Below, in pieces: positions 1 to 64,000 of a stretch of 64,000 bases of DNA. The translations under genes were made by a program, and so were the position numbers. This DNA is from an uncultured Gammaproteobacteria bacterium (GTDB lineage: Bacteria > Patescibacteriota > Microgenomatia > Levybacterales > UBA12049), in assembly GCA_964515545.1 (NCBI GenBank), contig CAZERI010000001.1, forward strand, positions 69,625-133,624. Reading direction: 5' to 3'. Position 1 is the first letter of the stretch. Each line of letters opens with the position of its first letter. Below the pieces are notes generated by a model that was given only the letters and a program-made list of their open reading frames with translations, was not told the DNA's origin and searched no databases.

Positions 1-306
1 ACAAGAATTCCTACGTCATCATTTCCTGCCTACCAGTCAGCTGCTGATAAAGCATACGGAGATTATTGGAAAAATGTCGATGAGAATTATCCTTGGTTTA
101 ATAAATTTCCTATCCGTACAGATAGTTACTTTCTGTATTTTGATCTCAATAAGAAATCTTTCGTAGCTAATCTCTATCCTCAGAGCAATAACTCCCAATC
201 CATCGACTCTCAAGTTGCTCAAATGAAGCAAACGATTATTAATCAGGTTGCATCGATTACACACCAGCAAAACAATCCTATCGAATATGCAATTTTTGCC
301 CAATAA
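1..306 (+). CDS. 3' fragment of a hypothetical protein (frame 1 is open from the window edge to TAA at 304-306); preferred over the antisense ORF 37..303
   Basis: Uninterrupted frame-1 translation from nt 1 (TRIPSSFPAYQSAADKAYGDYWKNVDENYPWFNKF...AIFAQ*). Next gene starts 7 nt downstream on the same strand. Confidence 0.4.
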   Translation, partial: TRIPTSSFPAYQSAADKAYGDYWKNVDENYPWFNKFPIRTDSYFLYFDLNKKSFVANLYPQSNNSQSIDSQVAQMKQTIINQVASITHQQNNPIEYAIFAQ

Positions 307-312
307 CTGCTC

Positions 313-813
313 ATGTTTTTAAATAGAAAGCTATCACCTCAACTAATCTTGTCAGGAATTGTGGGAGTGCTCGCTCTGTTAGTAGTCTTTTTTACACTTG
401 CTTCATTCCTTAGACCCAGCTCTACCCAAAACCCAACCAGACCATCTCCCACTCTAACATCGGCAGTACTGCTTAACCAGCAAGAAAAATCCTACCCTGA
501 AGCAACCCCTCAGACATTCCAGAACAGTAAGGCTACAGAGAAAGGAACGCTTGTGGTCAATGCAAATAGTAAAGGAGGGATTGCTAAGATCGATCCGCTA
601 CCAATAGGCGAGACACAAGGGCCAAAAGACCTCAGCTCCCTTCCTAGAATCCCCGATCAAACGCTCCCTTTTATTTACAAAGACATCCCCTCAGGACAAC
701 ATACTCTTCTCGTATCGAAGCCTGGCTATCTTGCCCAAAAAGTATCTTTTACTATTAATCCAGGCCAAATCACCCGACTTATCATAAGTCTTATTCCCAT
801 TTCTCAGCAATGA
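313..813 (+). CDS. membrane-anchored secreted protein; the C-terminal beta-rich segment resembles a PEGA/carboxypeptidase-regulatory-like domain
   Basis: N-terminal TM helix (LILSGIVGVLALLVVFFTLASF), Pro/Thr-rich linker, HTLLVSKPGYLAQKVSFTINPGQITRL motif. ATGA overlap with next gene. Confidence 0.5.
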   Translation: MFLNRKLSPQLILSGIVGVLALLVVFFTLASFLRPSSTQNPTRPSPTLTSAVLLNQQEKSYPEATPQTFQNSKATEKGTLVVNANSKGGIAKIDPLPIGETQGPKDLSSLPRIPDQTLPFIYKDIPSGQHTLLVSKPGYLAQKVSFTINPGQITRLIISLIPISQQ

Positions 814-2231
814 ACAAGTCTTACTTACTCATTTTTTTAACCATCGCTTTAACCATAGGCTTTTTCTTTGTGAGAAAAAATGTTGCTCTGGCTGCAGATA
901 GTTCTTCTCCTTGTATTACTGATCCCGTCCACATCAGTACCGTTACAGAAAAATTCCTCCCGCTTGCTGCTGAATGCGTAGCTAACACCCCTTATTCCTA
1001 CTGTGGCCGTGCTGAACAAAAAGATGGCGAATATGCGCCTAGCCCTAACTGTGTTACACCAAAATACATCATCATGCATACAACTCACGGTGATTTAGAT
1101 ATCGATGGTATTTATTCTTACTTTGCTGATGGGTCAGGTGGTCGACATGTAGGATCACACTTCGGAATTGGTCAGGATGGGAAAATTATCCAGATGGTTG
1201 CCATGGGCAAGACACAAGTTGAATATGCCCAAGCAGTCGGTGGTATGAAGGAGCATATTTCCATTGAAATGGGTGCACCCGGCAACTATGGGAGTAAGAG
1301 TGACGCTCCCCCAAATCAATATACCTCTGCATTAAGGCTCGTTAAGACACTAATGCAAACATACAATATTCCTTCTGAAAACGTGCAGGGTCATTTTGAC
1401 TTCTGGCCTGTTTCAAGTGGGGGAGCTGGTGATCCAGGAGAAGGCTGGATGAAAGACTTTAAAGCAGATCTCATCAACGCTACTCCACTAGATGGGACAT
1501 CAAACCCAAGCACTTCAGGAAATGGAAGCGGTTCAACGAGCTATACAGGATGTGTCATCACGAAAGTGGGTAATCCTACTGATCCTTCTCCTCCCCTCCC
1601 TGCAGATTGTAATAAGGGAAATGGAAGCGGTGGAGGATTACCAGGCGGTCCATGCCAGGCAGCTCCGCCTCTTCCAGCAAATGTTAAACAAGCTATTATT
1701 GATAAGTGGGGGATCACCCTTAACATACCTGATGATCAGGTCGCTCTAGCTTGGGATGAATTTTACAGAATTGACTGCACTGGATTCCTGCAGGACATCA
1801 AAGGAACATTGGTAGAAAGTTGGGGGGAGGACTACGCACAACAATTCTCCTGTCCAGGGACTAGTGGAGATTACGGAGATGTTGATGTTGAATTCAGTAA
1901 CCAATGGTCAGGGAGGTTTATGCAGACAATTCTAATTCATGAGCTAACACATGTCTGGCAACATTGTAGCAGTAGAGGGGAACAGAATCTGATAGACAAC
2001 GACAGTGCTTTTGCGCAAGAAGGTGGATTAACTAAGTATTCTCGAAATGAATGCCCTAAATTTACTTCAAAAACTCCCAATAAAGAGGATCATGCTGATA
2101 CAATAGCTCTCTATCTCAATTCTGACCAAGGAGAATTAACATGTGGAGATGGAGCACCAAACCCATTTGCTGGCGGAGGACATTCTCTTCATAGAGCATC
2201 AGCTGAAAAAGGAGTTGGGAAAGCACAATGA
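810..2231 (+). CDS. secreted N-acetylmuramoyl-L-alanine amidase (Amidase_2/PGRP fold) fused to a C-terminal HExxH zinc-metalloprotease-like domain
   Basis: Signal/TM at N-terminus. Amidase_2 signature YIIMHTTHG...GRHVGSHFGIGQDGKIIQMV. Gly/Ser-rich linkers. HELTHVWQH (HExxH) in the C-terminal domain. Confidence 0.7.
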   Translation: MNKSYLLIFLTIALTIGFFFVRKNVALAADSSSPCITDPVHISTVTEKFLPLAAECVANTPYSYCGRAEQKDGEYAPSPNCVTPKYIIMHTTHGDLDIDGIYSYFADGSGGRHVGSHFGIGQDGKIIQMVAMGKTQVEYAQAVGGMKEHISIEMGAPGNYGSKSDAPPNQYTSALRLVKTLMQTYNIPSENVQGHFDFWPVSSGGAGDPGEGWMKDFKADLINATPLDGTSNPSTSGNGSGSTSYTGCVITKVGNPTDPSPPLPADCNKGNGSGGGLPGGPCQAAPPLPANVKQAIIDKWGITLNIPDDQVALAWDEFYRIDCTGFLQDIKGTLVESWGEDYAQQFSCPGTSGDYGDVDVEFSNQWSGRFMQTILIHELTHVWQHCSSRGEQNLIDNDSAFAQEGGLTKYSRNECPKFTSKTPNKEDHADTIALYLNSDQGELTCGDGAPNPFAGGGHSLHRASAEKGVGKAQ

Positions 2232-2878
2232 GAAGCAACAAGCCAGTACTTATCATTTTAGGAATAACTTTTCTTCTTGCCGTGATTGTGATGATTATGG
2301 CAATTAGCAGCCTCTTTAGTCCCTCCCATAAGAACTCCCCTGAAAATATTCCCACACCCACGCTCGTTCCTTATACCAGAGATCCAAATGGCCAGTTTAT
2401 CTTCACACCGCTTCAGAGGACAGTAATTAATAAAACGACTGACAAGGAAATCCAGGAGAAAAATCATGTTATCAGTAAATCTAGGCTTGGGGAAATAACA
2501 AGCTACATTGTTACTTCCAATACCATAGGGCAGACAGATGAGATCAGAACAAAAAATGGAGTGGTAATATTTGAAAGTATTAATATTTTCAACAAAAAGA
2601 CAGGCAGCTACCCGCCTAAAGTATCTGTCTACCAGAAAGAGTTCGGCCAACCGGAAAAGATTCTAAAGAGTGTCTCTCCTCTAGGGATATATATATCAGC
2701 CTACATTTATGCCTCTGACGGATTCACTCTTTTCGTCAATCACAATACCAACACTGTATATGTCGTTCAAAGATTTACCCCTATGAGCCTTGCTGCCTAT
2801 GAGAAAACCTATGCTGATTATATCCAGCCTGCCCCAGAGTATCCTCAAGAGGCTCCCATAACTACTGTTGTACCCTGA
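2228..2878 (+). CDS. membrane-anchored hypothetical protein (extracytoplasmic)
   Basis: ATGA overlap with upstream gene, N-terminal TM helix, no recognisable motif. Confidence 0.45.
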   Translation: MRSNKPVLIILGITFLLAVIVMIMAISSLFSPSHKNSPENIPTPTLVPYTRDPNGQFIFTPLQRTVINKTTDKEIQEKNHVISKSRLGEITSYIVTSNTIGQTDEIRTKNGVVIFESINIFNKKTGSYPPKVSVYQKEFGQPEKILKSVSPLGIYISAYIYASDGFTLFVNHNTNTVYVVQRFTPMSLAAYEKTYADYIQPAPEYPQEAPITTVVP

Positions 2879-3977
2879 TAGGCATAATCAGATGAAGATA
2901 AGAAGCGTCATCTTTGAGCTTAAATACTCCTGGATTTAATGGCCCTGTCATCTCTAAGGATAACTCTGTTTGAGGAATACCTGAAAGAACATCTAAAAGG
3001 TAGCGAGCATTAAAGGCTATTTCATTTTCCTCCCCTGTTAATTTCCCTTCAACCTCAACAGTATTCTCACCAAGAGAAGGCGTCTGGGATGAGACAATCA
3101 ACTTATCTTGTTTTAAAGAGAACTTGATAATATTTGCAGCTTCCCTGGCAAAGATAGAACAGATTTTTACTGCCTTGAGGAGTTCTTCTCGATCAAAGAA
3201 AATCCGAGAATTGTGGTCTGATGGGATAATTCTCTCATAATTGGGAAATTCTGCCTCAATTAATCTTCCAATAAGAATAGTCTCCCCCATTTCAAACATC
3301 ACTTGATTACTTCCTTTAGCAACATGGATGAGGACATCTGTTGTGTCGTCTCGAATAGAAAGAATTTCTCTCACGACACGAGCTGGAATAATAATGGTCT
3401 CCTCGTCTTTAGCTGTTGTCTCACTTCCTGAGACAAGGTGATGTTTTAAAGAAAGACGATAGCCATCAGTACCTACTAACAAAAACCCATTGCCTTCCTT
3501 TTTCACTAAAATTCCTGAGAGAGCTGGACGGGAGGTATCAGTGCTAGCAGAAAAAACTACCATTGAAGCATCTTTTTTAAGGTCTGTAAAATTAACTTTA
3601 GCGATTGTTTCCCCTTTTTCCTCATAGAGCTTAGGGTAGTCTGAGGCAGGAATTGTCTGGAACGAACTCTTGGTCTTTTTACTCTCAATAGTAACAGCAT
3701 TGTCTGTTGTGGTAAGTGTTATTTTTTCATTAGGCAGTGAATTAATTAGTTCAGAAAACGTTTTTGCAGGAATCGTGGTAGCTCCTTCTTCTTCTATCTC
3801 AGCTGCAATCTGCGTCTGAATTCCAATCTCCAAGTCAGTACTGCTAATTCGTAAGATACCATTACGTGCTTCTATAAGAATATTTAATAGAATAGGGAGA
3901 TCTGTTCTGGAAGAGATAGCATGATTGAGGTAACTTATTTTTTTTTGGAGATTTTCTGAAAGAACTGTTACCTTCAT
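2862..3977 (-). CDS. dnaN: DNA polymerase III beta subunit (sliding clamp)
   Basis: Typical clamp N-terminus MKVTVLSENLQKKISYLNHAISSR...LPILLNILIEA. 371 aa, downstream of dnaA on the same strand. Confidence 0.9.
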   Translation of the reverse strand: MKVTVLSENLQKKISYLNHAISSRTDLPILLNILIEARNGILRISSTDLEIGIQTQIAAEIEEEGATTIPAKTFSELINSLPNEKITLTTTDNAVTIESKKTKSSFQTIPASDYPKLYEEKGETIAKVNFTDLKKDASMVVFSASTDTSRPALSGILVKKEGNGFLLVGTDGYRLSLKHHLVSGSETTAKDEETIIIPARVVREILSIRDDTTDVLIHVAKGSNQVMFEMGETILIGRLIEAEFPNYERIIPSDHNSRIFFDREELLKAVKICSIFAREAANIIKFSLKQDKLIVSSQTPSLGENTVEVEGKLTGEENEIAFNARYLLDVLSGIPQTELSLEMTGPLNPGVFKLKDDASYLHLIMPIRVQQ

Positions 3978-4228
3978 ATATATTTATTTGTTGTTGTTGT
4001 AGTGTATCGGGAAAAGTGGAAAAAAGCAAGAATATACTACCCCATAATAACGATTATTTGTAGTAAAAAGACCCCAAAGACAAGCGATTGTTTTTTTAAG
4101 CGCTACAATAAGAGTTCTATAATAATAGAAATCTTTTAATGATACATGCCTAAGTAAATGTTGATAATAAGTGGAGGATTTTGGGTACAACTTAGGGATA
4201 AATAAAAAATTGGAGTTATCCGAAAGTT

Positions 4229-5608
4229 TTACCCAACAAATGCTTTAGTTATCCCCATGATATCATCAACAATTTTAGCCTTGTTTTCCACAAGACCTTC
4301 TATCTTTTCCACACCATGCATAATGGTAGTATGATCACGTCCTCCTAAGAGATTGCCTATTTCAACATAGGTGAGGCCTAGCTGCTCTTTGAGAAGATAC
4401 ATCGCTACCTGTCGGGCTTTAACAAGGCTTGCGTCACGTTTTGGTCCTTTGAGTTGAGTTGCTTTCACTCCATAGAACTCACAGACACTCTTAACTACAT
4501 CTTCAGCGTGGATATGCGAAGTCCTCTCTTCGCGCATAATCCCTAGAGCTTTTTCTGCTAGATCGAGATTGATCTCTCCCCCTGTGGTAGTAGCTTGGGT
4601 AATAACGCGAAGTAACAACCCCTCAAGGCTCCGTGTATCCTCTACTCTCTCTGCCAGAAGTGTGGCGACTTCAATTGGTAGGCTATAACCAAATTTCTCA
4701 GCTTTCATTTGGAGGATTGCAGTCTTTAGCTCAACATCAGGCTTCTCGATATCGACAGTTAATCCTCCAGCAAAGCGGGAAGAAAGACGCTTTTCCAACT
4801 TCTTTATCTCATGGGGCGGGCGATCTGAGGAGAGGCAGATTTGCGCATGGTTATCAATAAGGATATTAAATGTATGAAATAATTCTTCTTGGACTTTCTC
4901 CTTACCTTCAATAAACTGGATATCGTCAATAATAAGAAGAATTGCGGAGCGAAATCTCTTCTTCATTTGAGCGGTTGAATTAGTACGGATTGCCTCAACT
5001 ACTTCGTTAGTAAATTCTTCACTCGTAATATAGATGATCTTTTTATCAGGAGCTTGGAGATAGACTTGGTTAGCGATTGCATGCATGAGATGTGTCTTGC
5101 CTACTCCAACTGGTCCATAGAGAAAAAGGGGGTTATAAAATGTGCCGATATGCTTAGCCACTGTCGAGGCAGCTGTGAAAGCAAGCTGGTTACTGCCTGA
5201 GACAGCAAAAGTAGCAAAGGTGTACTCGGGACGGACTCGGGGAAGGTGTCCGATAGCAAGGGGCTGTGACTTAATTTTTTCTGGCTCAGCTGTGATTTCC
5301 TTTTTCTCATGAGAATCTGCAAAGAGAGGACTTTCTTCATCCTTAGATTCTTGTTTTATAGCTTTAACGATAAAGACTATTTCATTATCTCGTTTAGTGT
5401 TCTTGTCTAACAGGAGCTTTATATCAGCCTTAAAGCGTTTTTGGAGTAAGTCTGCGATCATAAGAGAAGGAGTGGCGATGGTTGCAATATTGTCATCAAG
5501 CGAAAGGAGTGCAGTACTTTTAAAAAACATGACAAAATTGCCTGTTGAGACCTTCTTTTTAATTTCTGAGAGTACGGCATTCCAAGTAGCTGTTAATTCT
5601 TTATCCAT
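4229..5608 (-). CDS. dnaA: chromosomal replication initiator protein DnaA
   Basis: Walker A GPVGVGKTHLMHAI, AAA+ domain, C-terminal DnaA DNA-binding signature (LTYVEIGNLLGGRDHTTIMHGVEKIE). Confidence 0.95.
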   Translation of the reverse strand: MDKELTATWNAVLSEIKKKVSTGNFVMFFKSTALLSLDDNIATIATPSLMIADLLQKRFKADIKLLLDKNTKRDNEIVFIVKAIKQESKDEESPLFADSHEKKEITAEPEKIKSQPLAIGHLPRVRPEYTFATFAVSGSNQLAFTAASTVAKHIGTFYNPLFLYGPVGVGKTHLMHAIANQVYLQAPDKKIIYITSEEFTNEVVEAIRTNSTAQMKKRFRSAILLIIDDIQFIEGKEKVQEELFHTFNILIDNHAQICLSSDRPPHEIKKLEKRLSSRFAGGLTVDIEKPDVELKTAILQMKAEKFGYSLPIEVATLLAERVEDTRSLEGLLLRVITQATTTGGEINLDLAEKALGIMREERTSHIHAEDVVKSVCEFYGVKATQLKGPKRDASLVKARQVAMYLLKEQLGLTYVEIGNLLGGRDHTTIMHGVEKIEGLVENKAKIVDDIMGITKAFVG

Positions 5609-5680
5609 AATTATTGTGATAGAAACCCTAAAGCAGAGATCTGTAGAGACCGGAAAGGCAGATAGTAGTCAGTCTACTCA

Positions 5681-5689
5681 TGTGGATAA
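5681..5689. promoter_or_regulatory. perfect DnaA box (TGTGGATAA = reverse complement of TTATCCACA) in the dnaA-rpmH intergenic region
   Basis: Exact 9-mer match read directly. Lies 72 bp upstream of the dnaA start codon on the other strand. Confidence 0.55.
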
Positions 5690-5766
5690 CTCCTGTCAAG
5701 ATGATCTTTTTATATCGGCTGACCCGCCTTCCCAAATGAGGATAAAACTGATATAATGTCTCCAGT

Positions 5767-5901
5767 ATGGAAAAATTTGCTACTCTTAAAAAAGTAAAAC
5801 GTCAAAGGAAACACGGTTTCTTGTCCCTTATGAAGTCTCATGGGGGGCGCAAAGTAATTGAGCGTCGACGTGCAAAAGGTCGTAAGAGTCTTACTATCTA
5901 A
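5767..5901 (+). CDS. rpmH: 50S ribosomal protein L34 (44 aa; not in the ORF track because it is under 60 aa)
   Basis: [44 protein letters not shown], a clear L34 signature. TATAAT at 5752-5757. Confidence 0.85.
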
Positions 5902-5906
5902 TTATC

Positions 5907-6236
5907 ATGCTTCCCTCAGCCTATCGTCTCCCTCATGGAAAGAGGATATCTTCCAGATTTACTTTTAGAAGTCCCATTTTTCTCCTTAAGATTGCTTCAA
6001 ATACTCAGGAGAATTCCCGTTTTGGAATTATCATTAGTAAAAAGATAGACAAGAGAGCCGTGAGGCGTAACCGTATGCGACGTTTGTTGCAGCAGTTTAT
6101 TCAAGAGCATATAGCTCTTTTTCCTAAATCATCAGACTATCTTTTTATTGTAACTACTGCTTTTGAAGATCTTCCAGACAGTATCGAGTCTGAACTGGAA
6201 CGATATTTTAAACATACCCATGAAAAGAATAGCTGA
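5907..6236 (+). CDS. rnpA: ribonuclease P protein component
   Basis: Basic protein with the RnpA motif (RLLQQFIQEH... IISKKIDKRAVRRNRMRR), immediately downstream of rpmH. Confidence 0.85.
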   Translation: MLPSAYRLPHGKRISSRFTFRSPIFLLKIASNTQENSRFGIIISKKIDKRAVRRNRMRRLLQQFIQEHIALFPKSSDYLFIVTTAFEDLPDSIESELERYFKHTHEKNS

Positions 6237-6432
6237 TTTACTCATCCGTTTTTATCAGGTTATCATCTCCCCTCTTCTTCTCCAAGTCTTGGGAGTTCCA
6301 AGTATTTGCCGGTTTGAGGAGAATTGTTCTTCCTATGCCCGAAGAGTTATTAAAGAGTATGGTATACTATACGGACTAATGCTGACAGTAAAGCGACTTG
6401 TCGCCTGTCAGCCTTTTATTCATTATGGGTAG
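6220..6432 (+). CDS. yidD: membrane protein insertion efficiency factor YidD
   Basis: ISPLL...CRFEENCSSYA...ACQPFIHYG conserved Cys pattern. The ATG at 6220 is preferred over the TTG at 6163. Confidence 0.8.
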   Translation: MKRIADLLIRFYQVIISPLLLQVLGVPSICRFEENCSSYARRVIKEYGILYGLMLTVKRLVACQPFIHYG

Positions 6433-7279: not shown

Positions 7280-7733
7280 GTCACCAAACGAACAACAAAT
7301 AATTCAGGAAGTAACAGAAAAACTTCTTCATGAGCTAGAGGTCTCTGGCACCGCAGACGTAGTCGTTGCTGAGGACACAGCTGATATTATCCTAGAGACA
7401 GAGGAAAGTGGGCTTATTATTGGGTACCATGGTGAGATCCTAGAGGCTTTGCAGCTGCTTATTTCTCTTATCTCTTCTCGAAAGATCGGCCGTTTTGTGC
7501 GAGTATCAGTGGAAGTTGGGGATTACAAGAAAAACCGTACTGAATATTTGGAGCGCTTAGCAGAGCAGACTAAAGAGAGAGTCCTTCAAGAAGGAAGAGC
7601 TCATACTCTTTCCTCTCTAAAATCTTGGGAGCGACGTGTTGTCCATTTGGTCCTTCAGAATGATGACGAAGTTACCTCCGAATCAATGGGTGAAGGAAAA
7701 GATCGGGTCTTGGTTGTCAAACCTCGCGACTAG
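7269..7733 (+). CDS. jag: Jag/KhpB RNA-binding protein (KH + R3H domains)
   Basis: GLIIGYHGEILEALQ (KH-like) and a C-terminal R3H-like region. Canonical position after yidC. ATG 7269 preferred over TTG 7221. Confidence 0.8.
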   Translation: MASKSPNEQQIIQEVTEKLLHELEVSGTADVVVAEDTADIILETEESGLIIGYHGEILEALQLLISLISSRKIGRFVRVSVEVGDYKKNRTEYLERLAEQTKERVLQEGRAHTLSSLKSWERRVVHLVLQNDDEVTSESMGEGKDRVLVVKPRD

Positions 7734-9105
7734 CCCAACGCGTACCCTCTTCTATCTTTTCTTATTTAGTATTTCTTCTCAGTTTGGCCGTCACTTCTGG
7801 CCAGCCTTTAGTAGTCTAAATGGATTACGAGTAGATTACCTCTCCCCCACTCTCTACTTTTCAGATATCATTATAGTCCTTCTCTTTATTGAAATGCTCC
7901 CTGTTATTGTGCGGACTGTTCCCCTCTGGAAATTAGGTATTAGTACAGCACTTCTTATCGCCTTTGGGTATCTTTCCTTTCTATCGGTCTCTCCTCTTAA
8001 TAGTCTGGTTGGTGTTCTACGATTATGTGAAATAGTAGGTATGAGTTTTGTCTGTGCCCGTTTTTTTAGTAAACAGGCTCTGATATCTTCTATCCGATTT
8101 TTGATCTCCTCTTCAGTAATACTTATAAGTCTGTTGGCTATCTGGCAATTTCTCAATCAGAGCTCTGTTGGAGGCTTATGGTATTACTTAGGGGAAAGAA
8201 GTTTTACTTCACTTACCCCCGGTATAGCCAATGCTTCGCTAAACGGGACACTTATTCTCCGTCCTTATGCAACCTTTCCTCACCCTAATGTCCTGGCAGG
8301 ATTTATGGTAGTAATGAGCATTTACCTTCTCTATTTTATTCCTCAGGGCATGGAGGTCCGGTATAGAAGATGGCTAAGTATCATTGCCCTTTTTCTAGGA
8401 ATGGTGACAACCTTACTAACCATGAGCAGGACAGGGATAGTTGTTTTAGCCTTTGTGTATGTGGTGTGGTTAATAAAAAAAGCTTTCTCCCGAAAAATCC
8501 TTTTCAGCCTAGTGATAGCCTCAATTATTGGAATAGCGGGATTTCTTTTTCAGACCGGCATTTATCTTCGGTTTACTGCTCTTAGTTTTTCAGACGAGGC
8601 AATTACATTGCGAGAATTTTTACTCATAAGAGCATGGGAGCTCTTTCATTCGCATATGCTAACAGGAGTCGGGCTACAAAATTTTCTTCCGGCACTTGCT
8701 CTCCTTCTTCCTCAGGCTACTCCGCTTATGTATTTCCAGCCTGTCCACTCTGTCTATTTTCTGTTGTTGAGTGAGACAGGTTTGGTAGGAAGTTCCCTGG
8801 TGCTTCTTTTCTTGTTTTATCTTATGTGGCGTATTCTCACTTCTTCTCAAAAGCTAGGGAAAACAGTACTCCTTTTTTCACTCCTTCTCCTTTTTTTGAC
8901 TGATCATTATTTTTATACACTCCATCAAGGACAACTACTTCTCTCATTTTCTCTCGGTTTATTATTAGCTCAGACATCACCTTTCACAAGACAAGAAGCG
9001 AAAAATTTGAGAAAAGACACAGGACACAGGAAGGCGAAAAAAAGCTTGAGCCATCGGCCTGTGAAAATTTCCCGAAATGGTAAATCAAGCGTGAAAAGAA
9101 AATAA
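7636..9105 (+). CDS. O-antigen ligase-like (Wzy_C superfamily) polytopic membrane protein; start uncertain (GTG 7636, ATG 7660 or ATG 7894)
   Basis: At least 10 TM helices. Wzy_C signature HSHMLTGVGLQNF ... HSVYFLLLSETGLVGS. Basic C-terminal tail. Confidence 0.65.
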   Translation: MLSIWSFRMMTKLPPNQWVKEKIGSWLSNLATSPTRTLFYLFLFSISSQFGRHFWPAFSSLNGLRVDYLSPTLYFSDIIIVLLFIEMLPVIVRTVPLWKLGISTALLIAFGYLSFLSVSPLNSLVGVLRLCEIVGMSFVCARFFSKQALISSIRFLISSSVILISLLAIWQFLNQSSVGGLWYYLGERSFTSLTPGIANASLNGTLILRPYATFPHPNVLAGFMVVMSIYLLYFIPQGMEVRYRRWLSIIALFLGMVTTLLTMSRTGIVVLAFVYVVWLIKKAFSRKILFSLVIASIIGIAGFLFQTGIYLRFTALSFSDEAITLREFLLIRAWELFHSHMLTGVGLQNFLPALALLLPQATPLMYFQPVHSVYFLLLSETGLVGSSLVLLFLFYLMWRILTSSQKLGKTVLLFSLLLLFLTDHYFYTLHQGQLLLSFSLGLLLAQTSPFTRQEAKNLRKDTGHRKAKKSLSHRPVKISRNGKSSVKRK

Positions 9106-9146
9106 CTTCAGAGAGATAAGGATGATGTACAATAGACATACTGCCT

Positions 9147-11807
9147 ATGTCTCAATCCTCTCTCAAACCAATCCTTGTTGTTGATAAAAAAGGAACACTA
9201 GGAAGCGCATTAGTTACTAAACTGTCTTCTCTATCTCTTACTGTTTTTGTCAGTAGTCAAGACCACCCAGGTAAGAATGTCATCGCTATCCCTTTCTATA
9301 AAAAGATTCCGCGTATTCCAAATAATTCTTTTTCGACAATAATTATTTTCTATACAGGTGAGTTAGAGCTAGAGCAGGCTATCCCCTCTTTTATTAAGAA
9401 GGCTCAAGAGACTCAGGCAAAACTTATCCTAATAACTTCGATCTTTTACTACAAAGAGAAAATGGCAGAAGTACTTTTTGCGCACTATGAACATTCGGAG
9501 GTTGTGGTCATCGGAGATGTTTTTGATGAAGGAGAGTCACATAAGACTCCAGTCAACCATCTTTTATGGAGTACAAAGACTCAGGGACGTGTTGAGCTCT
9601 TGCATGATGGCCTGAACTTATTATATCCAGTCTCTCTCGCCGATACGGTAAAAGGTATTGAAGCAGCTCTTTTCACTCTTGCCGAGGACAGGCAGATATT
9701 TGCCGTTATGCCTGTACATCCGATGACTGAGTTGTCATTTGTGAGGATCCTTCAAAAAAAATATCCTCTGCTTCAGATAGATTTTCTTAAAGGCAGTTCC
9801 CATCCTAACTACCTCCTGCCTCATTCAGCAGTACCGACCTTGGATGAATATAATCTAGAAAAAGACTTAGCTAAGCTGGATCTTAATCCACCAGTGAAAA
9901 AGCCAAGTATTGCTCTTAAAAAGGATAAAAGGAACCAAGGAGGAAGGAAGACAAGGACATCTTATCGCTCTGTCTTTTTTATTTTTTCTCTCGTTTTTTT
10001 CTTGCTGGCTCTCCCTTTTATAATTACTATTACAACCGCAATCGGAGGAGGCATTCTCCTTAAGCAAGCGAAGGGACATGCGGAGAAAGGAAAACTTACC
10101 GAGGCACTTCATTCGTCTCAATCAGCCGTAACGTTCTTAACACTGTCTGACGAGACTGTTACTACAGTAAACGCAGTTGTGAGTGTGATGGGGTTATCAA
10201 AGGAGGTATCTCCTCTTCAGCGTCTTGTTCATTCAGGAAAAGAAATTGCTGAAGCTTCGACAGAATTTCTTCAGGCAGGTGTACAGCTTCAGAGGATCCT
10301 GACGTCTTCACAAGCTGCAAGCAGAGACGATTTTATGCTGGCGATAGGAACTCTTAAAGAAGCTGCCTTGAGTCTTCAGGCTATTGAGGCAGAGGGGGAG
10401 TTACCAGACACTTATAAGAAATCCTTAGCCTCTTTTGATAAACCGCTTGGATTACTAGTAAACCTGGTAGATGCTTCCCCTAAGCTCTTGGGATTTGAAG
10501 GCAAACAGCAATACCTTCTCCTTTTTCAAAATAATTTTGAACTTAGACCTGGCGGAGGGTTTATTGGGTCATATGGACTTTTACAGGTTGACCACGGCAA
10601 AATTATTGATCTAAAGATTAATGATGTCTATGATGCTGATGGAAGATTAAAGGCAAACATCGAGCCTCCATTCGGATTAAGAAGGTATATGGGTGCTCCT
10701 CATTGGTTTTTGCGGGATAGTAACTTCGATCCGGATTTTGTCAAAAGTGCCTCAAGTGCTGCCTCTTTTCTTAAGCTTGAGACAGGGGAGAATGTGAATG
10801 GTGTTATAGGTCTTGATGTTAGTTTTTTAAGTTCTCTTTTGGAGGCGACAGGCCCGCTTACCTTACCTGATTACAAGAAAACGTTAACAAAAGATAATTT
10901 TTATCTTCTCACGCAGTCTCAGGTAGAAGATAATTTCTTCCCGGGCTCAACACAGAAAAAGGATTTTCTCCGTGCAGCAGAGGCTGAGCTGATGAAGAGA
11001 ATTGAAAAGAGGAATTTTTCCTATCAAAAAATGGTTAGCCTTCTCACTACTGCAATAGGAGAAAAACACCTCCTTTTCGCCTTTTCAGATCCTGCGATCC
11101 AAAAGCTCTTTGCTGTTAATAATCTTTCCGGTACTCTCCAAGAAAAAAGGCTAGTGACCCCTACAGTATTCTTAGACAGTGTGGGAATTAACGAGGCCAA
11201 TATTGGACAAAATAAAAGTAATTACTATCTCAAGCGGAATATTGATCAGGATATAACAATTGATGGGGAGGGAGTGGTGCGTGGTGTAACTACAGTGACT
11301 TACGCGAACCAAAGTTCAGAGAAGACTCCATTTGGGGGAGATTATAAAGCGTACCTACGTCTTATCGTACCGCAGGGAACAACGTTAACGGATATTTCCC
11401 TTGATCACAAGAAAGTGCCGATAGAAGAGGCAGTGACAGATCCGAATCGTTATCTATCTTCCTCATTCCGTCCTCCTGGAGGGGTTGAAGTCGATACCTT
11501 AGAATCAGAAGATAATACACAGTATGGATTATTCATCAATGTTCCTGCTGGAAAGACGAAAACAGTTAGTCTCTCTTATACTCTTTTACATAAAATAAAT
11601 GTAGATCTCCCTAAATGGACATACGCTCTGCACACGATAAAACAACAGGGAACTCTTAATGATCCCTATAAATTGACTATTCATTACCCTCTGGCTGTAC
11701 GTCTTTTCACTACAACAAAAGGAGTTAATGATTTGGGAGGAAAGGCTACTTTGGAGACAACCCTTAATGAAGATAAGGATAGTAATTTTACCTTCATAAG
11801 TAAGTAG
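9147..11807 (+). CDS. large membrane protein: cytoplasmic Rossmann-like N-domain, one TM helix, extracellular DUF4012-like domain
   Basis: 886 aa. TM at about residues 270-300. Segment FQNNFELRPGGGFIGSYGLLQVDHGKIIDLKINDVYDADG recalled as typical of DUF4012 proteins. Confidence 0.55.
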   Translation: MSQSSLKPILVVDKKGTLGSALVTKLSSLSLTVFVSSQDHPGKNVIAIPFYKKIPRIPNNSFSTIIIFYTGELELEQAIPSFIKKAQETQAKLILITSIFYYKEKMAEVLFAHYEHSEVVVIGDVFDEGESHKTPVNHLLWSTKTQGRVELLHDGLNLLYPVSLADTVKGIEAALFTLAEDRQIFAVMPVHPMTELSFVRILQKKYPLLQIDFLKGSSHPNYLLPHSAVPTLDEYNLEKDLAKLDLNPPVKKPSIALKKDKRNQGGRKTRTSYRSVFFIFSLVFFLLALPFIITITTAIGGGILLKQAKGHAEKGKLTEALHSSQSAVTFLTLSDETVTTVNAVVSVMGLSKEVSPLQRLVHSGKEIAEASTEFLQAGVQLQRILTSSQAASRDDFMLAIGTLKEAALSLQAIEAEGELPDTYKKSLASFDKPLGLLVNLVDASPKLLGFEGKQQYLLLFQNNFELRPGGGFIGSYGLLQVDHGKIIDLKINDVYDADGRLKANIEPPFGLRRYMGAPHWFLRDSNFDPDFVKSASSAASFLKLETGENVNGVIGLDVSFLSSLLEATGPLTLPDYKKTLTKDNFYLLTQSQVEDNFFPGSTQKKDFLRAAEAELMKRIEKRNFSYQKMVSLLTTAIGEKHLLFAFSDPAIQKLFAVNNLSGTLQEKRLVTPTVFLDSVGINEANIGQNKSNYYLKRNIDQDITIDGEGVVRGVTTVTYANQSSEKTPFGGDYKAYLRLIVPQGTTLTDISLDHKKVPIEEAVTDPNRYLSSSFRPPGGVEVDTLESEDNTQYGLFINVPAGKTKTVSLSYTLLHKINVDLPKWTYALHTIKQQGTLNDPYKLTIHYPLAVRLFTTTKGVNDLGGKATLETTLNEDKDSNFTFISK

Positions 11808-11834
11808 CAGTTCTTTGCTATAATAAAGAGTCTA

Positions 11835-12749
11835 ATGCCAATTTTTTCTATTATTCTTACCGTTGTAGGTCTGTGCCTATTTGAAATCATTAGCAGTATT
11901 GATAACGCTATCATTAATGCTGAAGTTCTCGGGACTATGGGTGCAAAGGCACGAAAGTGGTTCCTTGTATGGGGGCTTTTGTTTGCAGTCTTTGTAATGA
12001 GAGGATTACTCCCATGGGCCATTATCTGGGCTACCACTCCTACACTCGGGCCGATTGGTGCACTTACCGCAACATTTAGTAATGATCCTCGAGTACATCA
12101 GGCAATTAGCAACTCATCGCCTATTCTTCTCACAGGAGGAGGAGTCTTTTTGGTTTTCCTTTTCTTCCATTGGTTATTTATGGAGCCTAAAAATTATGGT
12201 TTAAAAGGTGAGCGGTTTTTTAGATCTCAATCAGTATGGTTCTATGCTATTGTATCGACGCTGCTTGCAGGAATTGTCTATGCAGGGCTTAAGATCCATC
12301 CTTTGATGGCGTTTAGTGCATGTCTTGGCTCGACTGCATTTTTTATTACTCACGGTTTTAGTCAGCAGGCTGAGCAGGCTGAGAGGAATCTTACGAAAAG
12401 TAATATGTCTGATCTGAGTAAGATTCTCTATCTTGAGGTTATTGATGCTACGTTTTCCATTGATGGAGTCTTAGGAGCCTTTGCCTTTACTTTATCTGTG
12501 CCGTTAATTCTTTTAGGAAATGGGATTGGTGCCATTGTACTTCGTCAGCTCACAGTAGGGAATATTGAGAGAATTAAGCAATATAAGTATCTAAAAAATG
12601 GGGCAATGTATTCGATTTTGTGTCTAGGCATAATTATGTTACTTGATGCTTTCGATTTTCATATTCCAGAATGGATCTCCCCAAGTATTACCTGTGTAGT
12701 AGTAGGATTCTTTTTCATTAAATCCAGAAGAGAGCTGACGAGTAAGTAA
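11835..12749 (+). CDS. TerC/DUF475 family integral membrane protein
   Basis: N-terminal EIISSIDNAIINAEVL motif. Multi-TM. Confidence 0.5.
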   Translation: MPIFSIILTVVGLCLFEIISSIDNAIINAEVLGTMGAKARKWFLVWGLLFAVFVMRGLLPWAIIWATTPTLGPIGALTATFSNDPRVHQAISNSSPILLTGGGVFLVFLFFHWLFMEPKNYGLKGERFFRSQSVWFYAIVSTLLAGIVYAGLKIHPLMAFSACLGSTAFFITHGFSQQAEQAERNLTKSNMSDLSKILYLEVIDATFSIDGVLGAFAFTLSVPLILLGNGIGAIVLRQLTVGNIERIKQYKYLKNGAMYSILCLGIIMLLDAFDFHIPEWISPSITCVVVGFFFIKSRRELTSK

Positions 12750-61712: not shown

Positions 61713-61785
61713 GGGCCGGTAGCTTAGTTGGTAGAGCGTCGCTTTTGCACAGCGAAGGTCGAGAGTTCGAATCTCTTCCGGTCCA
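61713..61785 (+). tRNA. tRNA-Ala (anticodon UGC), with a G3:U70 wobble pair; no encoded CCA
   Basis: Cloverleaf folded by hand: acceptor GGGCCGG/CCGGTCC with G3-T70, D-arm TAGCTTAGTTGGTAGAGC, anticodon loop TTTGCAC, T-arm GAGAGTTCGAATCTCTT, discriminator A. Confidence 0.9.
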
Positions 61786-61874
61786 CACTTTGGCAAATTC
61801 AGCAAAGCTGAAATTTGGCAAAGAGATCGAAGAGATGAGAAGCAAGCAACGCAAGTTGCAGTCCCCGTAGGGGA

Positions 61875-61891
61875 AATCTCTTCCGGTCCAC
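61875..61891 (+). repeat. exact 17-nt direct repeat of the tRNA-Ala 3' end (AATCTCTTCCGGTCCAC; first copy 61770-61786), 105 nt downstream
   Basis: Both copies read from the sequence; identical over 17 nt, and over 19 of 20 including flanks. Confidence 0.65.
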
Positions 61892-61954
61892 CCATTCGAC
61901 TCGCTTTGCTCGCTCAGGGCAAGCCAGCTAGTTTAGCTTGTCAATTTGGACAAG

Positions 61955-61977
61955 CCCCCTAGTTAGAGGGGGTTTTT
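61955..61977 (+). terminator. intrinsic terminator-like hairpin CCCCCT-AGTTAG-AGGGGG + T5 between tRNA-Ala and the 23S rRNA
   Basis: 6-bp G/C stem followed by TTTTT. Confidence 0.5.
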
Positions 61978-62089
61978 CCAAATTTGATAAGAGAGCTCTT
62001 TAACAAGTGAAGAGAATATTCCGTCCACAGCCGTGGATGGAATAAATGTTTTTGTCTAGTCCCATGAAAATTGGGACAAAATAAAAATC

Positions 62090-64000
62090 TACTCATAATG
62101 CCATTAATGGATGCCTAGGCAATGATGACCGAGGAAGGACGCACACGGCGGCGATACTCGTCGGGGAGGGGCCACGACCCTTTGATCCGGCGGTCTCCGA
62201 ATGGGGCAACCCACCAGCTTGTCTGGTAGCCTGCAGTAAACATTAGTCGTAAGACTATAATAGCTGTTGAGCTGGGAACGGCGTGAACTGAAACATCTTA
62301 GTAGCGCCAGGAATATAAATCATATGAGATTCCGTCAGTAGCGGTGAGCGAAAGCGGAACAGTCTAAACCACTTTATGTGGGGTTGTAGGGCAGACGATA
62401 TGTGATGAAGTATAGATAGCAGAAGGACTCGGAATAGTCCTCCAAAGAACGTGAAAGACGTGTATGCGAAATATATACTTCCGCTAGTTTGTACCTAAGT
62501 ACCATGGAGCACGATAAACTCTGTGGGAATCCGGGTCGACCACGATCCAAGACTAAATATCAGCATTGACCGATAGTGAACTAGTACCGCGAGGGAAAGG
62601 TGAAAAGCACCCCGGGAGGGGGATGAAATAGAACTGAAATTAATGGCTAACAAGCAGCGAAAGTCTCAGCAATGGGATGATCGCGTGCCTATTGAAGAAT
62701 GAACCGGTGAGTTATTGTTTGCAGCGTTAGTTTAAGCAAGTTTCCTTGCGTAGACAGAGTGAAAGCGTGCCCTAACCGGGCGATAGTTGCAAGTAATAGA
62801 CCCGAAACTGGGTGAGCTAACCTTGAGCAGGTTGAGTCCTACAGAAATGTAGGAGGAGGACCGCACTCGTTACCGTAGCAATGGTATGAGATGACTTGAG
62901 GTTAGGGGCAATATGCCAATCGAACCCAGAGATAGCTGGTTCTCCCCGAAATATATTATGGTATAGCGCTATGTATACTCTTACGGGGTAGAGCACTGAA
63001 TGGTTCGTGGGGGAGCAATCTCTCGCAACCAATCAAACTCCGAATACGTAAGATTTAGCATAGTAGTCAGGCTGGTCGGGCTAAGCTGATCAGTCAAAAG
63101 GGAAACAGCCCAGACTCCCATTTAAGGCCTCTAAATCAAAGCTAAGTTTTGAAGGAAGTCAAGATCCTTAGACACCCAGGAAGTTGGCTTAGAAGCAGCC
63201 ATCTTTTAAAGATAGCGTAACAGCTCACTGGCGGATGGTTCTTGGCGCCGAAAATTTATCGAGGATTAAGCTTTGTGCCGAAATTGGAGATTTGTTAGTA
63301 ATAACAAGTGGTAGGGGAGCGTTCTATTTGCAGTGAAGTTGGAGTGTAAACTCTGGTGGAGCGGATAGAAGTGAGAATGCCGGTATGAGTAGCGATAGAT
63401 AGGTGAGAAACCTATCCACCGAAAGCCCAAGGTTTCCTCCGCAATGTAAGTCAGCGGAGGGTTAGTCGACCCTAAGGGTATTCCTCGTTAAAGGGGATTA
63501 GCCCGATGGATAATCCGTTAAAATTCGGATACAGATTATATGTATGTAAGGGAGTTTCGGAGTTGGAAAAGCAGAGCTGGCTCCGGCCAGTCCAAGCAGT
63601 GAGATAGTGATGATCGGCAAATCCGTCTGTCACGTTTAATTAAGCTGTGAGTGAAAGTTTCCTAGTAATAGGGGATAATTTTGTAGTTTTCAGTTCCCAA
63701 GAAACGCTTCATTACGATCCGTAAGGATCAAAACATATAGTTTTTCGTACCGTATTACCGACACAGGTGGGCTGGTCGAGTAGACTAAGGTGATCGGGAG
63801 ACAGAGGTTTAAGGAACTCGGCAAAAAAGCTAGGCGTAACCTATGGGAGATGCCTTTCCGCAATGAGATTTGCGGACACAGCAAAAGAGTATTTAGCGAC
63901 TGTTTATCTAAAACACAGGTCCCTGCAAAGCTGAAAAGCAACGTATAGGGGCTGACACCTGCCCAGTGCCGGTAAGTCAATGATTGTCGGCTGATCCAAG
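62090..64000 (+). rRNA. rrl: 23S ribosomal RNA, 5' approx. 1.9 kb (continues beyond the window); no 16S gene upstream within the window
   Basis: Conserved 23S blocks GGATGCCTAGGC, GAACTGAAACATCTTAGTA, GATTCCGTCAGTAGCGGTGAGCGAA, CCGACACAGGTGG, CTGCCCAGTGCCGGTAAG at the expected spacing. Confidence 0.9.

Follow-up and report, generated by a model that had tools for sequence, protein, structure and literature searches.

Type IV secretion systems (T4SS) of Patescibacteria have been described as MPF-FATA-like, with genes located near dnaA, dnaN, rnpA and rpmH and without a relaxase (Quinonero-Coronel et al. 2025, PMC12102498). They are essential for epibiotic growth, and no substrate or mechanism is known for them (PMC10633639, PMC12102498, PMC12857230). 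In Southlakia epibionticum, the counterparts of the genes analysed here, downstream of virB4, were all essential for epibiotic growth (PMC10633639, supplement). These genes encode a 1113-aa protein with a DD-peptidase-type domain at its C-terminus, a protein that combines two lysozyme-like domains with a Cys-proteinase domain, the exported PEGA protein SEML1_0005, and a small protein with a prealbumin-like fold (PMC10633639). Here, a 64,000-nt stretch of contig CAZERI010000001.1 (referred to as the window) was analysed for ORF2, an open reading frame (ORF) near its left end that encodes an exported fusion of an Amidase_2 domain with an HExxH (zincin) domain, and for the adjacent ORF1 and ORF3 (Table 1). 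With moderate confidence, ORF2 is regarded as a Sec-exported bifunctional cell-envelope hydrolase of a T4SS locus, accompanied by a partner protein that binds or inhibits it.

Described proteins comparable to ORF2 are the VirB1-like wall hydrolases of Gram-positive conjugation systems, PrgK (pCF10), TraG (pIP501), TcpG and CD419/TrsG, and the S. epibionticum hydrolases SEML1_0006/0007. As with these, the ORF2 gene has the orientation of virB4 and follows it closely within an MPF-FATA-like locus (PMC12102498, PMC10633639), and like them its product is exported and multi-domain and combines a glycan- or amide-bond cutter with a peptidase. In contrast to them, it contains neither SLT/lysozyme nor CHAP or M23 domains, but uses Amidase_2 and a zincin-fold peptidase. 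It further differs as an additional hydrolase of its locus, encoded downstream of the hydrolase-like p528, and by its putative dedicated partner gene ORF3. The combination of Amidase_2 and zincin goes unmentioned in PMC12102498 and PMC10633639. Because no SLT or CHAP match was obtained for ORF2 in the Pfam/NCBIfam scan, it is considered a functional analogue, not a homologue, of VirB1. SLT domains are present in other members of the zincin family.

For analysis of the locus, contig L008 was used, which was found via an exact ORF3 match, is identical to the window over 12,878 nt and reaches 7.8 kb further left. Its genes encode, in order, a protein of which 440 aa are present up to the edge of the locus, PrgI (406 aa; PF12666, E = 2.7e-9), a TraC-like protein (219 aa), VirB4 (695 aa, 72-80% identical to VirB4 of other loci), p455, p528, p161, ORF1, ORF2 and ORF3, and convergent dnaN/dnaA come after ORF3. 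ORF2 is thereby located five genes downstream of virB4 on the same strand. Stop and start codons overlap as ATGA at both the ORF1/ORF2 and the ORF2/ORF3 junction. The three genes are the 3' end of a roughly ten-gene operon for a Gram-positive-type (MPF-FATA-like) T4SS that converges on dnaN/dnaA. Promoter and terminator scans of the operon yielded nothing exceeding shuffled expectation.

The order PrgI, TraC-like protein, VirB4, a protein of about 1000-1200 aa, a small anchored protein, zincin and ORF3 was found in L001, L003 and L004 (standalone zincin) and in L006 and L007 (fused). In the same loci, the ORF3 homologue is followed by convergent dnaN and dnaA and then by rpmH, rnpA, yidD, yidC, jag and a Wzy_C gene. 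The operon order of L008 was also found in L013, L016 and a contig from the Joint Genome Institute (JGI). Wherever a locus was long enough to judge (8/8), the zincin gene was located a few genes downstream of virB4, on the same strand and with minimal gaps, at zincin identities down to about 30%. The window locus matches the published Patescibacteria T4SS, since both have the same architecture and the same position near dnaA/dnaN/rnpA/rpmH (PMC12102498). An original prediction, made from the sequence letters, had described ORF1 to ORF3 as one operon of secreted proteins, a three-gene cluster beside the replication origin. All three ORFs were recovered on the forward strand with the predicted boundaries, are co-oriented and translationally coupled, and adjoin dnaN/dnaA, where a cluster of DnaA-box-like sites and the GC skew minimum fit a nearby origin. 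A self-contained cluster was not found; the genes are the last ones of a T4SS operon whose beginning lies beyond the left end of the window.

ORF2 starts with a Sec-type leader and an AxA site, as judged by sequence inspection (MNKSYLLIFLTIALTIGFFFVRKNVALA↓ADSSSPC, arrow: predicted cleavage), and textbook leaders are present in its fused homologues (e.g. MKKILIFTSVLFFFLTAVPVFA↓AGQPSTC). The leader is followed by the Amidase_2 domain, Gly/Ser/Pro-rich linkers and the C-terminal HExxH domain. Secretion leader, zinc-amidase core, linkers and zincin-like C-terminus were all part of the original prediction and were each corroborated. Sec leaders are found on all the hydrolases, and the small proteins carry uncleaved anchors. 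A Cys-bracketed stub, internal in ORF2, directly follows the signal peptide in standalone zincin relatives; because of this position ORF2 resembles a standalone zincin protein with an amidase inserted after the leader.

The stub motif ('S..C.T.VG.P....P..C') was also observed after the leader of L013_p434 (L013 6897-8201), an unrelated SLT-like/M23-like secreted protein. It could be a sorting, docking or pro-segment.

For the zincin domain, a word-index search with residues 279-473 yielded 24 relatives with 44-66% identity. Each of them has 240-305 aa, carries no Pfam domain and no amidase, and consists of a leader, the 'CxTKVG...C' stub, a Gly linker and the zincin domain. An exhaustive profile search of 1.84 billion representatives yielded 222 family clusters at E <= 1e-3, of which 160 also passed E <= 1e-10. 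The H, E and H of the motif were invariant in all three family alignments (25, 88 and 57 sequences). The Glu of 'EDxAxxIA', which is E426 in ORF2, was invariant in two of the alignments and present in at least 90% of sequences in the third. Conservation of these four residues at or close to 100% shows that the HExxH did not arise by chance. ORF2 has the HExxH helix, a Glu on the following helix and the mixed beta-sheet upper subdomain of gluzincins, and in addition Y410/R412 and six Cys, all conserved. At threshold, the domain was matched by none of the Pfam and NCBIfam models; weak sub-threshold matches were mostly to zinc-peptidase families (DUF6782, M78, eCIS_core).

The best match of the family profile in the PDB was PPEP-1/Zmp1 (E = 0.05). 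In the profile alignment, E426 falls on the second Glu of PPEP-1 PEEFFAE, which, by our own count of the printed alignment, we take to be E185, the third zinc ligand. In ORF2 the Glu follows the second His at a distance of 45 residues, presumably the same as in lethal factor (H690 to E735). The Pro-Pro endopeptidases PPEP-1/Zmp1, PPEP-2 and PPEP-3 and the catalytic domain of anthrax lethal factor (MEROPS M34, ATLF) have in common with the zincin domain that the active-site helix carries the HExxH and a later helix the Glu ligand; they are likewise secreted and functionally linked to an adjacent gene. Unlike them, to which its identity is only about 14-19%, the zincin domain has six conserved Cys, W-Q-x-C after the HExxH, Y-x-R and NEDHADTIA, and occurs in a T4SS context with peptidoglycan-hydrolase fusion partners. 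PF07737 (ATLF) was matched by just 1/57 zincin members, at E = 0.096. By its sequence features, the domain is a genuine gluzincin with a predicted PPEP/M34-like fold and ligand geometry, and by sequence it is not a member of M34/ATLF.

A protein with the motif 'LIHELTHVWQ', encoded in a high-GC metagenome-assembled genome labelled 'Proteobacteria bacterium' (L005 9659-10282), matched the profile hidden Markov model (HMM) of the family over 20 positions only. It was rejected as a zincin relative, as it has the motif alone in common and so represents an unrelated HExxH family.

For domain architectures, 88 members of at least 350 aa among the best 150 family representatives were subjected to one Pfam pass. 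The zincin was C-terminal in most of these. Peptidoglycan-hydrolase partners were SLT (11 members, plus one each with SLT_2 and SLT_3), Amidase_2 (8 members), Peptidase_M23 (2 members) and, in one member each, Amidase_3, Glucosaminidase and Peptidase_M14. Partners that are not peptidoglycan-specific were found too (DUF11 in 5 members, GDSL lipase, two glycosyl-hydrolase families and CarboxypepD_reg), and the majority of the 88 had no Pfam match outside the zincin. Relatives carry the zincin as a standalone protein, as an Amidase_2 fusion or at the C-terminal end of the large post-VirB4 protein. The latter ends in different modules in different loci: HMM matches identify the zincin in L003 (E ~1e-63), L013 (E ~1e-78) and L015 (E ~1e-82, with SLT upstream), whereas motif inspection points to an SLT-like module in L001, L004 and L006 and to an M23-like one in L007. 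The amidase-zincin fusion is thus real but one of several architectures, and the closest zincin relatives are without an amidase.

In the related lineage of L015 (3883-4635 and 6285-7064 on the reverse strand, and 4709-6283), zincin genes were observed to be interleaved with T4SS pilin genes (PF18895).

The amidase domain was matched by PF01510 (Amidase_2) at E = 1.6e-14 and 54.8 bits (cut-off 26) over model positions 4-130 of 131. H90, E153, K163, H195 and D208 (DPG motif) were invariant in ORF2 and eight fused homologues with 34-58% identity. In a PDB profile search, the closest solved relatives were the endolysin domains of PlyG (2l47, 4.6e-12), PlyL (1yb0) and XlyA (3hmb). H90 aligned with the first zinc-ligand His of PlyG and PlyL, and E153 with the Glu that is Ala in entry 2ar3, which we take to be the PlyL E90A mutant, E90 being the catalytic Glu. 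H195 and D208 were assigned as ligands by motif position. The third ligand would be the Asp of the DPG motif, presumably as in AmpD, which makes the H-H-D triad AmpD-like. Taken by its conserved residues, the domain looks catalytically competent. With PlyG, PlyL, XlyA and AmpD it shares the match above the Pfam threshold and the aligned zinc-ligand His and catalytic Glu; it differs from them by the Sec leader, an N-terminal Cys-rich extension, the fused zincin, the lack of a cell-wall-binding domain and the replaced Lys before the third ligand (see below). A word-index search with the amidase half alone yielded zero matches, and the fused homologues were obtained only via the exhaustive search of representatives.

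ORF2 had an exact match in the protein collection, where it belongs to a cluster with 2 members (NCBI and Logan); despite this presence, ORF2 itself was missed when its C-terminal half was used as query of the word-index search. Near-identical copies of the locus (0-9 mismatches) were observed in at least four sequencing runs (SRR12487046, DRR784974, SRR16642448 and SRR35198427).

Linkage of zincin and ORF3 was evaluated in nine non-redundant loci by a six-frame scan with HMMs for both families. They contain 11 zincin-domain genes, one of which was not judged as its contig ends 120 nt after the gene. An ORF3-family gene directly followed the zincin gene in 9/10 evaluable cases, and none of the 9 ORF3-family genes was without a zincin-domain gene directly before it. 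In L003, both the zincin domain and ORF3 are present in two copies, the latter as paralogues. ORF3 homologues are 42-71% identical, and the family could not be placed in Pfam or NCBIfam at threshold. The AlphaFold2 (AF2) model of ORF3 (pLDDT, predicted local distance difference test, 82) has a transmembrane (TM) helix and a disordered Pro/Thr stalk, followed by two tandem units that each consist of one helix and four strands. BLIP-like/DUF4309 proteins (YjgB), TsiN and BtiO resemble ORF3 in being extracytoplasmic and encoded right after an exported enzyme; they differ from it in that no family match exists at sequence level and in the N-terminal TM helix and Pro/Thr stalk of ORF3. By gene linkage and modelled fold class, ORF3 would be a dedicated binding partner of the zincin, as either its inhibitor or its membrane tether.

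The lone exception to the pairing was the second zincin protein of L015 (524 aa), which has no ORF3-family gene directly downstream. ORF3 was also considered as the 'missing' VirB8/PrgL (TM helix plus NTF2-like fold) and rejected, as its AF2 model lacks an NTF2-like fold.

A single, strongly hydrophobic segment is present at the N-terminus of both ORF1 and ORF3, in line with the membrane anchors originally predicted for both. The predicted PEGA-like domain of ORF1 was also recovered, with a Pfam match barely above cut-off (E = 2e-4, 21.6 bits vs 20.8). Its slot is analogous to that of SEML1_0005 (PMC10633639). The ORF1 slot is variable among related loci, and the sole detectable orthologue is in L007 (30% identity). 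That both flanking proteins are cell-wall-active was not supported: ORF1 is a variable, PEGA-like anchored protein, and ORF3 has an inhibitor-like modelled fold and is the presumed zincin partner.

The small operon proteins, among them p161, ORF1, ORF3 and L013_p177, with homologues in L001-L015, share an N-terminal module of an uncleaved TM helix and a Ser/Thr/Pro stalk of 'PTPTP' type. The ORF3 HMM matched positions 4-57 of other small operon proteins at 1e-5 to 1e-8. The module could serve all of them for anchoring or processing.

The reading of ORF2 as a T4SS-associated envelope hydrolase with a partner protein is directly supported by the domain identities, the conservation of catalytic residues, the T4SS context and the zincin-ORF3 gene linkage. 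From these we infer which substrates are cut, that ORF3 binds, and that ORF2 takes part in T4SS assembly. The amidase would cut the MurNAc-L-Ala bond and free stem peptides, and the zincin would hydrolyse a peptide bond in peptidoglycan stem peptides or cross-links. A zincin substrate in peptidoglycan is suggested because the domain is fused to wall hydrolases and, on the post-VirB4 protein, is swapped with SLT- and M23-like modules. ORF2 and neighbouring hydrolase-like proteins (p528) would open a local gap in the wall for the T4SS or its pilus, a role like that of VirB1, PrgK or TraG; ORF2 may also act on the host wall at the contact site. The translationally coupled ORF3 would bind the zincin and either restrain it (inhibition or self-protection) or tether it at the membrane. 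Since ORF2 has a Sec leader, an extracytoplasmic, VirB1-like role in assembly is favoured over that of a classical T4SS substrate.

Several points weigh against this reading. The nearest relatives of the zincin by structure and sequence, PPEPs and lethal factor, cut proteins and not peptidoglycan. In the amidase domain, the Lys two residues before the third ligand is replaced by Gly/Ala (GGAGDPG), so that ORF2 may lack full amidase activity. This Lys is, we assume, the catalytic one (T7 lysozyme K128, PlyL K135), and the more distant fused homologues keep R/K-x-DPG. Since Thr is tolerated here in PGRP-type amidases, loss of the Lys does not exclude activity. Finally, the assignment to Patescibacteria is probable, based on locus architecture and one bin label (BH09PAT1) and not on phylogeny.

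A less likely explanation, though the strongest of the alternatives, is that ORF2 is a host-directed lytic weapon, exported at or through the T4SS contact site, and ORF3 the cognate immunity protein that shields the wall or envelope of the producer itself from the zincin. Zincin and ORF3-family genes would then form an effector-immunity tandem, to which their strict 1:1 order, the overlapping stop/start codons and the two copies of each in L003 correspond; the ORF3 fold class includes BLIP and the type VI secretion system (T6SS) immunity proteins TsiN and BtiO. Patescibacteria T4SS are essential for epibiotic growth and lack relaxases, which suggests protein delivery (PMC10633639, PMC12102498). 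However, the Sec leader is that of VirB1-type assembly hydrolases, whereas classical T4SS substrates use cytoplasmic C-terminal signals. The zincin is also the C-terminus of a structural-looking large post-VirB4 protein, and the ORF2 position has none of the diversity of polymorphic toxins. ORF3 is well conserved, whereas immunity proteins usually diverge fast.

It appears improbable that the zincin is instead a PPEP-like sheddase or maturase, which cleaves the Ser/Thr/Pro stalks of ORF3, ORF1 and p161, or T4SS pilins or adhesins, with the amidase merely clearing peptidoglycan. PPEP-1 and PPEP-2 have their substrates encoded in the directly adjacent gene (PMC8610288), and all small operon proteins have the homologous TM and 'PTPTP'-type linker module as possible target. 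Yet these linkers do not contain the conserved Pro-Pro site of the PPEP consensus P↓P-x-P, the similarity to PPEPs is marginal in sequence with Pfam ATLF unmatched, and the many peptidoglycan-hydrolase fusion partners fit a wall substrate better. A housekeeping autolysin for cell separation or wall turnover that is merely located beside T4SS genes is very improbable. Amidase_2 enzymes commonly act in wall turnover and Sec export would fit, but the zincin gene is near virB4 on the same strand in every judgeable locus (8/8), and in some lineages the domain is physically fused to the large post-VirB4 protein.

A captured phage or prophage endolysin (amidase plus endopeptidase), a framing offered by the original prediction, has almost no probability despite the PlyG, PlyL and XlyA similarity of the amidase domain: ORF2 is surrounded by T4SS and replication genes and not by phage genes, it has a Sec leader and conserved synteny within the T4SS operon, no zincin relatives were found in IMG/VR (scan with the family alignment), and a BFVD fold search of the zincin gave no match at E <= 1e-3, so that for the whole gene this origin is effectively refuted.

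Table 1. Features of the T4SS operon end and the adjacent replication genes (window coordinates unless L008 is given)
Feature	Position	Strand	Description
p161, 3' end	1..306	+	Frame 1 open from base 1 to stop; N-terminally anchored small protein, same operon
p161, complete gene	L008 7594-8079		161 aa; contig identical to window
ORF1	313..813	+	Bitopic membrane protein of 166 aa; PEGA-like beta domain joined to the TM helix by a Ser/Thr/Pro linker
ORF2	810..2231	+	473 aa; exported amidase-zincin fusion
Predicted Sec signal peptide of ORF2	810..893	+	Residues 1-28, cleaved after ALA; by inspection
Amidase_2 (MurNAc-L-Ala amidase) domain	1056..1439	+	ORF2 residues 83-210; Pfam match
Putative zinc ligands of amidase	H90 (1077-1079), H195 (1392-1394), D208 (1431-1433)	+	By conservation/motif
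Predicted catalytic residue of amidase, E153	1266-1268	+	Aligned to Glu->Ala position of 2ar3
Cys-bracketed stub 'CxTKVGxP...C'	1539..1610	+	ORF2 residues 244-267; conserved in alignment; Gly/Ser/Pro linkers on either side
Zincin domain (gluzincin-type, PPEP/lethal-factor-like)	1653..2222	+	ORF2 residues 282-471
HELTH motif	1938-1952	+	ORF2 residues 377-381
Candidate third zinc ligand E426	2085-2087	+	ORF2
ORF3	2228..2878	+	216 aa, N-terminally anchored; tandem helix+4-strand (BLIP/DUF4309-like) ectodomain
dnaN	2862..3977	-	Convergent with ORF3; Pfam DNA_pol3_beta on identical L008 gene
dnaA	4229..5608	-	DnaA-box-like sites on either side

Left of the three genes, positions 1-306 of the window were considered as part of the post-VirB4 protein of about 1000 aa. 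This was rejected, as they are the end of the separate p161. In L008, two proteins, p455 and p528, take the place of the large post-VirB4 protein (L008 4611-7570, directly to the left of the window); they are located between virB4 and the genes of the small anchored proteins. p455 has an Ala/Gly-rich region and a TM segment, and its C-terminus appears RlpA/DPBB-like by eye ('KSVVVITIDQGP...IIDLGVDALKAIG'). p528 aligns with the middle of the large post-VirB4 proteins of other loci; by motif inspection it contains an SLT-like region ('AIENSG', 'GYGMQV') and a CHAP-like C-terminus ('YWCTY...EHTGLV...ESNSN'). As hydrolases, neither was recovered by profile: Pfam gave a sub-threshold DUF11 match for p455 and nothing for p528, and phmmer against the PDB gave no meaningful match.

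On the right side, the 3' ends of ORF3 and dnaN overlap by 17 nt (2862-2878), so that between the T4SS operon and the convergent replication genes an intergenic terminator has no space. DnaA-box-like sites (TTATCCACA, <= 1 mismatch) flank dnaA at 4159-4313 and 5601-5745, with the sole exact box at 5681-5689; 7/23 such sites of the 64 kb window are located within the 1.6 kb of 4159-5745. The cumulative GC skew has its minimum at ~8-10 kb. The surroundings of dnaA are likely the oriC neighbourhood.

After yidC/jag, genes for an O-antigen-ligase-like protein (Wzy_C), a DUF4012 protein of 886 aa and a membrane protein of TerC/DUF475 type were observed at 7636-12749 (L008 15463-20522). Since the same genes occur in the distantly related L006, this envelope-related block beside the origin is conserved beyond the T4SS. 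The right end of the window (61713-64000) contains tRNA-Ala(TGC), followed by a 23S rRNA gene of which the first ~1900 nt are present. The whole window gave no 16S rRNA match, and protein-length ORFs occupy the region directly upstream of the tRNA, so that the rRNA genes seem not to be linked.

Publications already describe the T4SS locus, that it lies near the origin and that it includes wall hydrolases. In the literature searched, the zincin family, its recurrent fusions to peptidoglycan hydrolases (including Amidase_2) and its near-obligate pairing with a BLIP-like partner were undescribed. The conserved position at the end of the T4SS operon holds a zinc-peptidase family that has not been filed, with 222 representative clusters, and zincin and ORF3 are two new families for the annotation of T4SS loci that are now drawn largely in grey. 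Amidase, protease and candidate regulator provide three reagents for testing how a T4SS is brought by these ultra-small cells through their own wall, and perhaps through that of the host. A bolder proposal, to which we give a rather low probability, is that zincin and ORF3 form an unrecognised protease-inhibitor (effector-immunity-like) module specific to Patescibacteria T4SS loci, in which the amidase-zincin would breach or remodel the host wall and ORF3 would protect the producer. If true, this would provide a concrete candidate effector for the essential, functionally unexplained T4SS of Patescibacteria.

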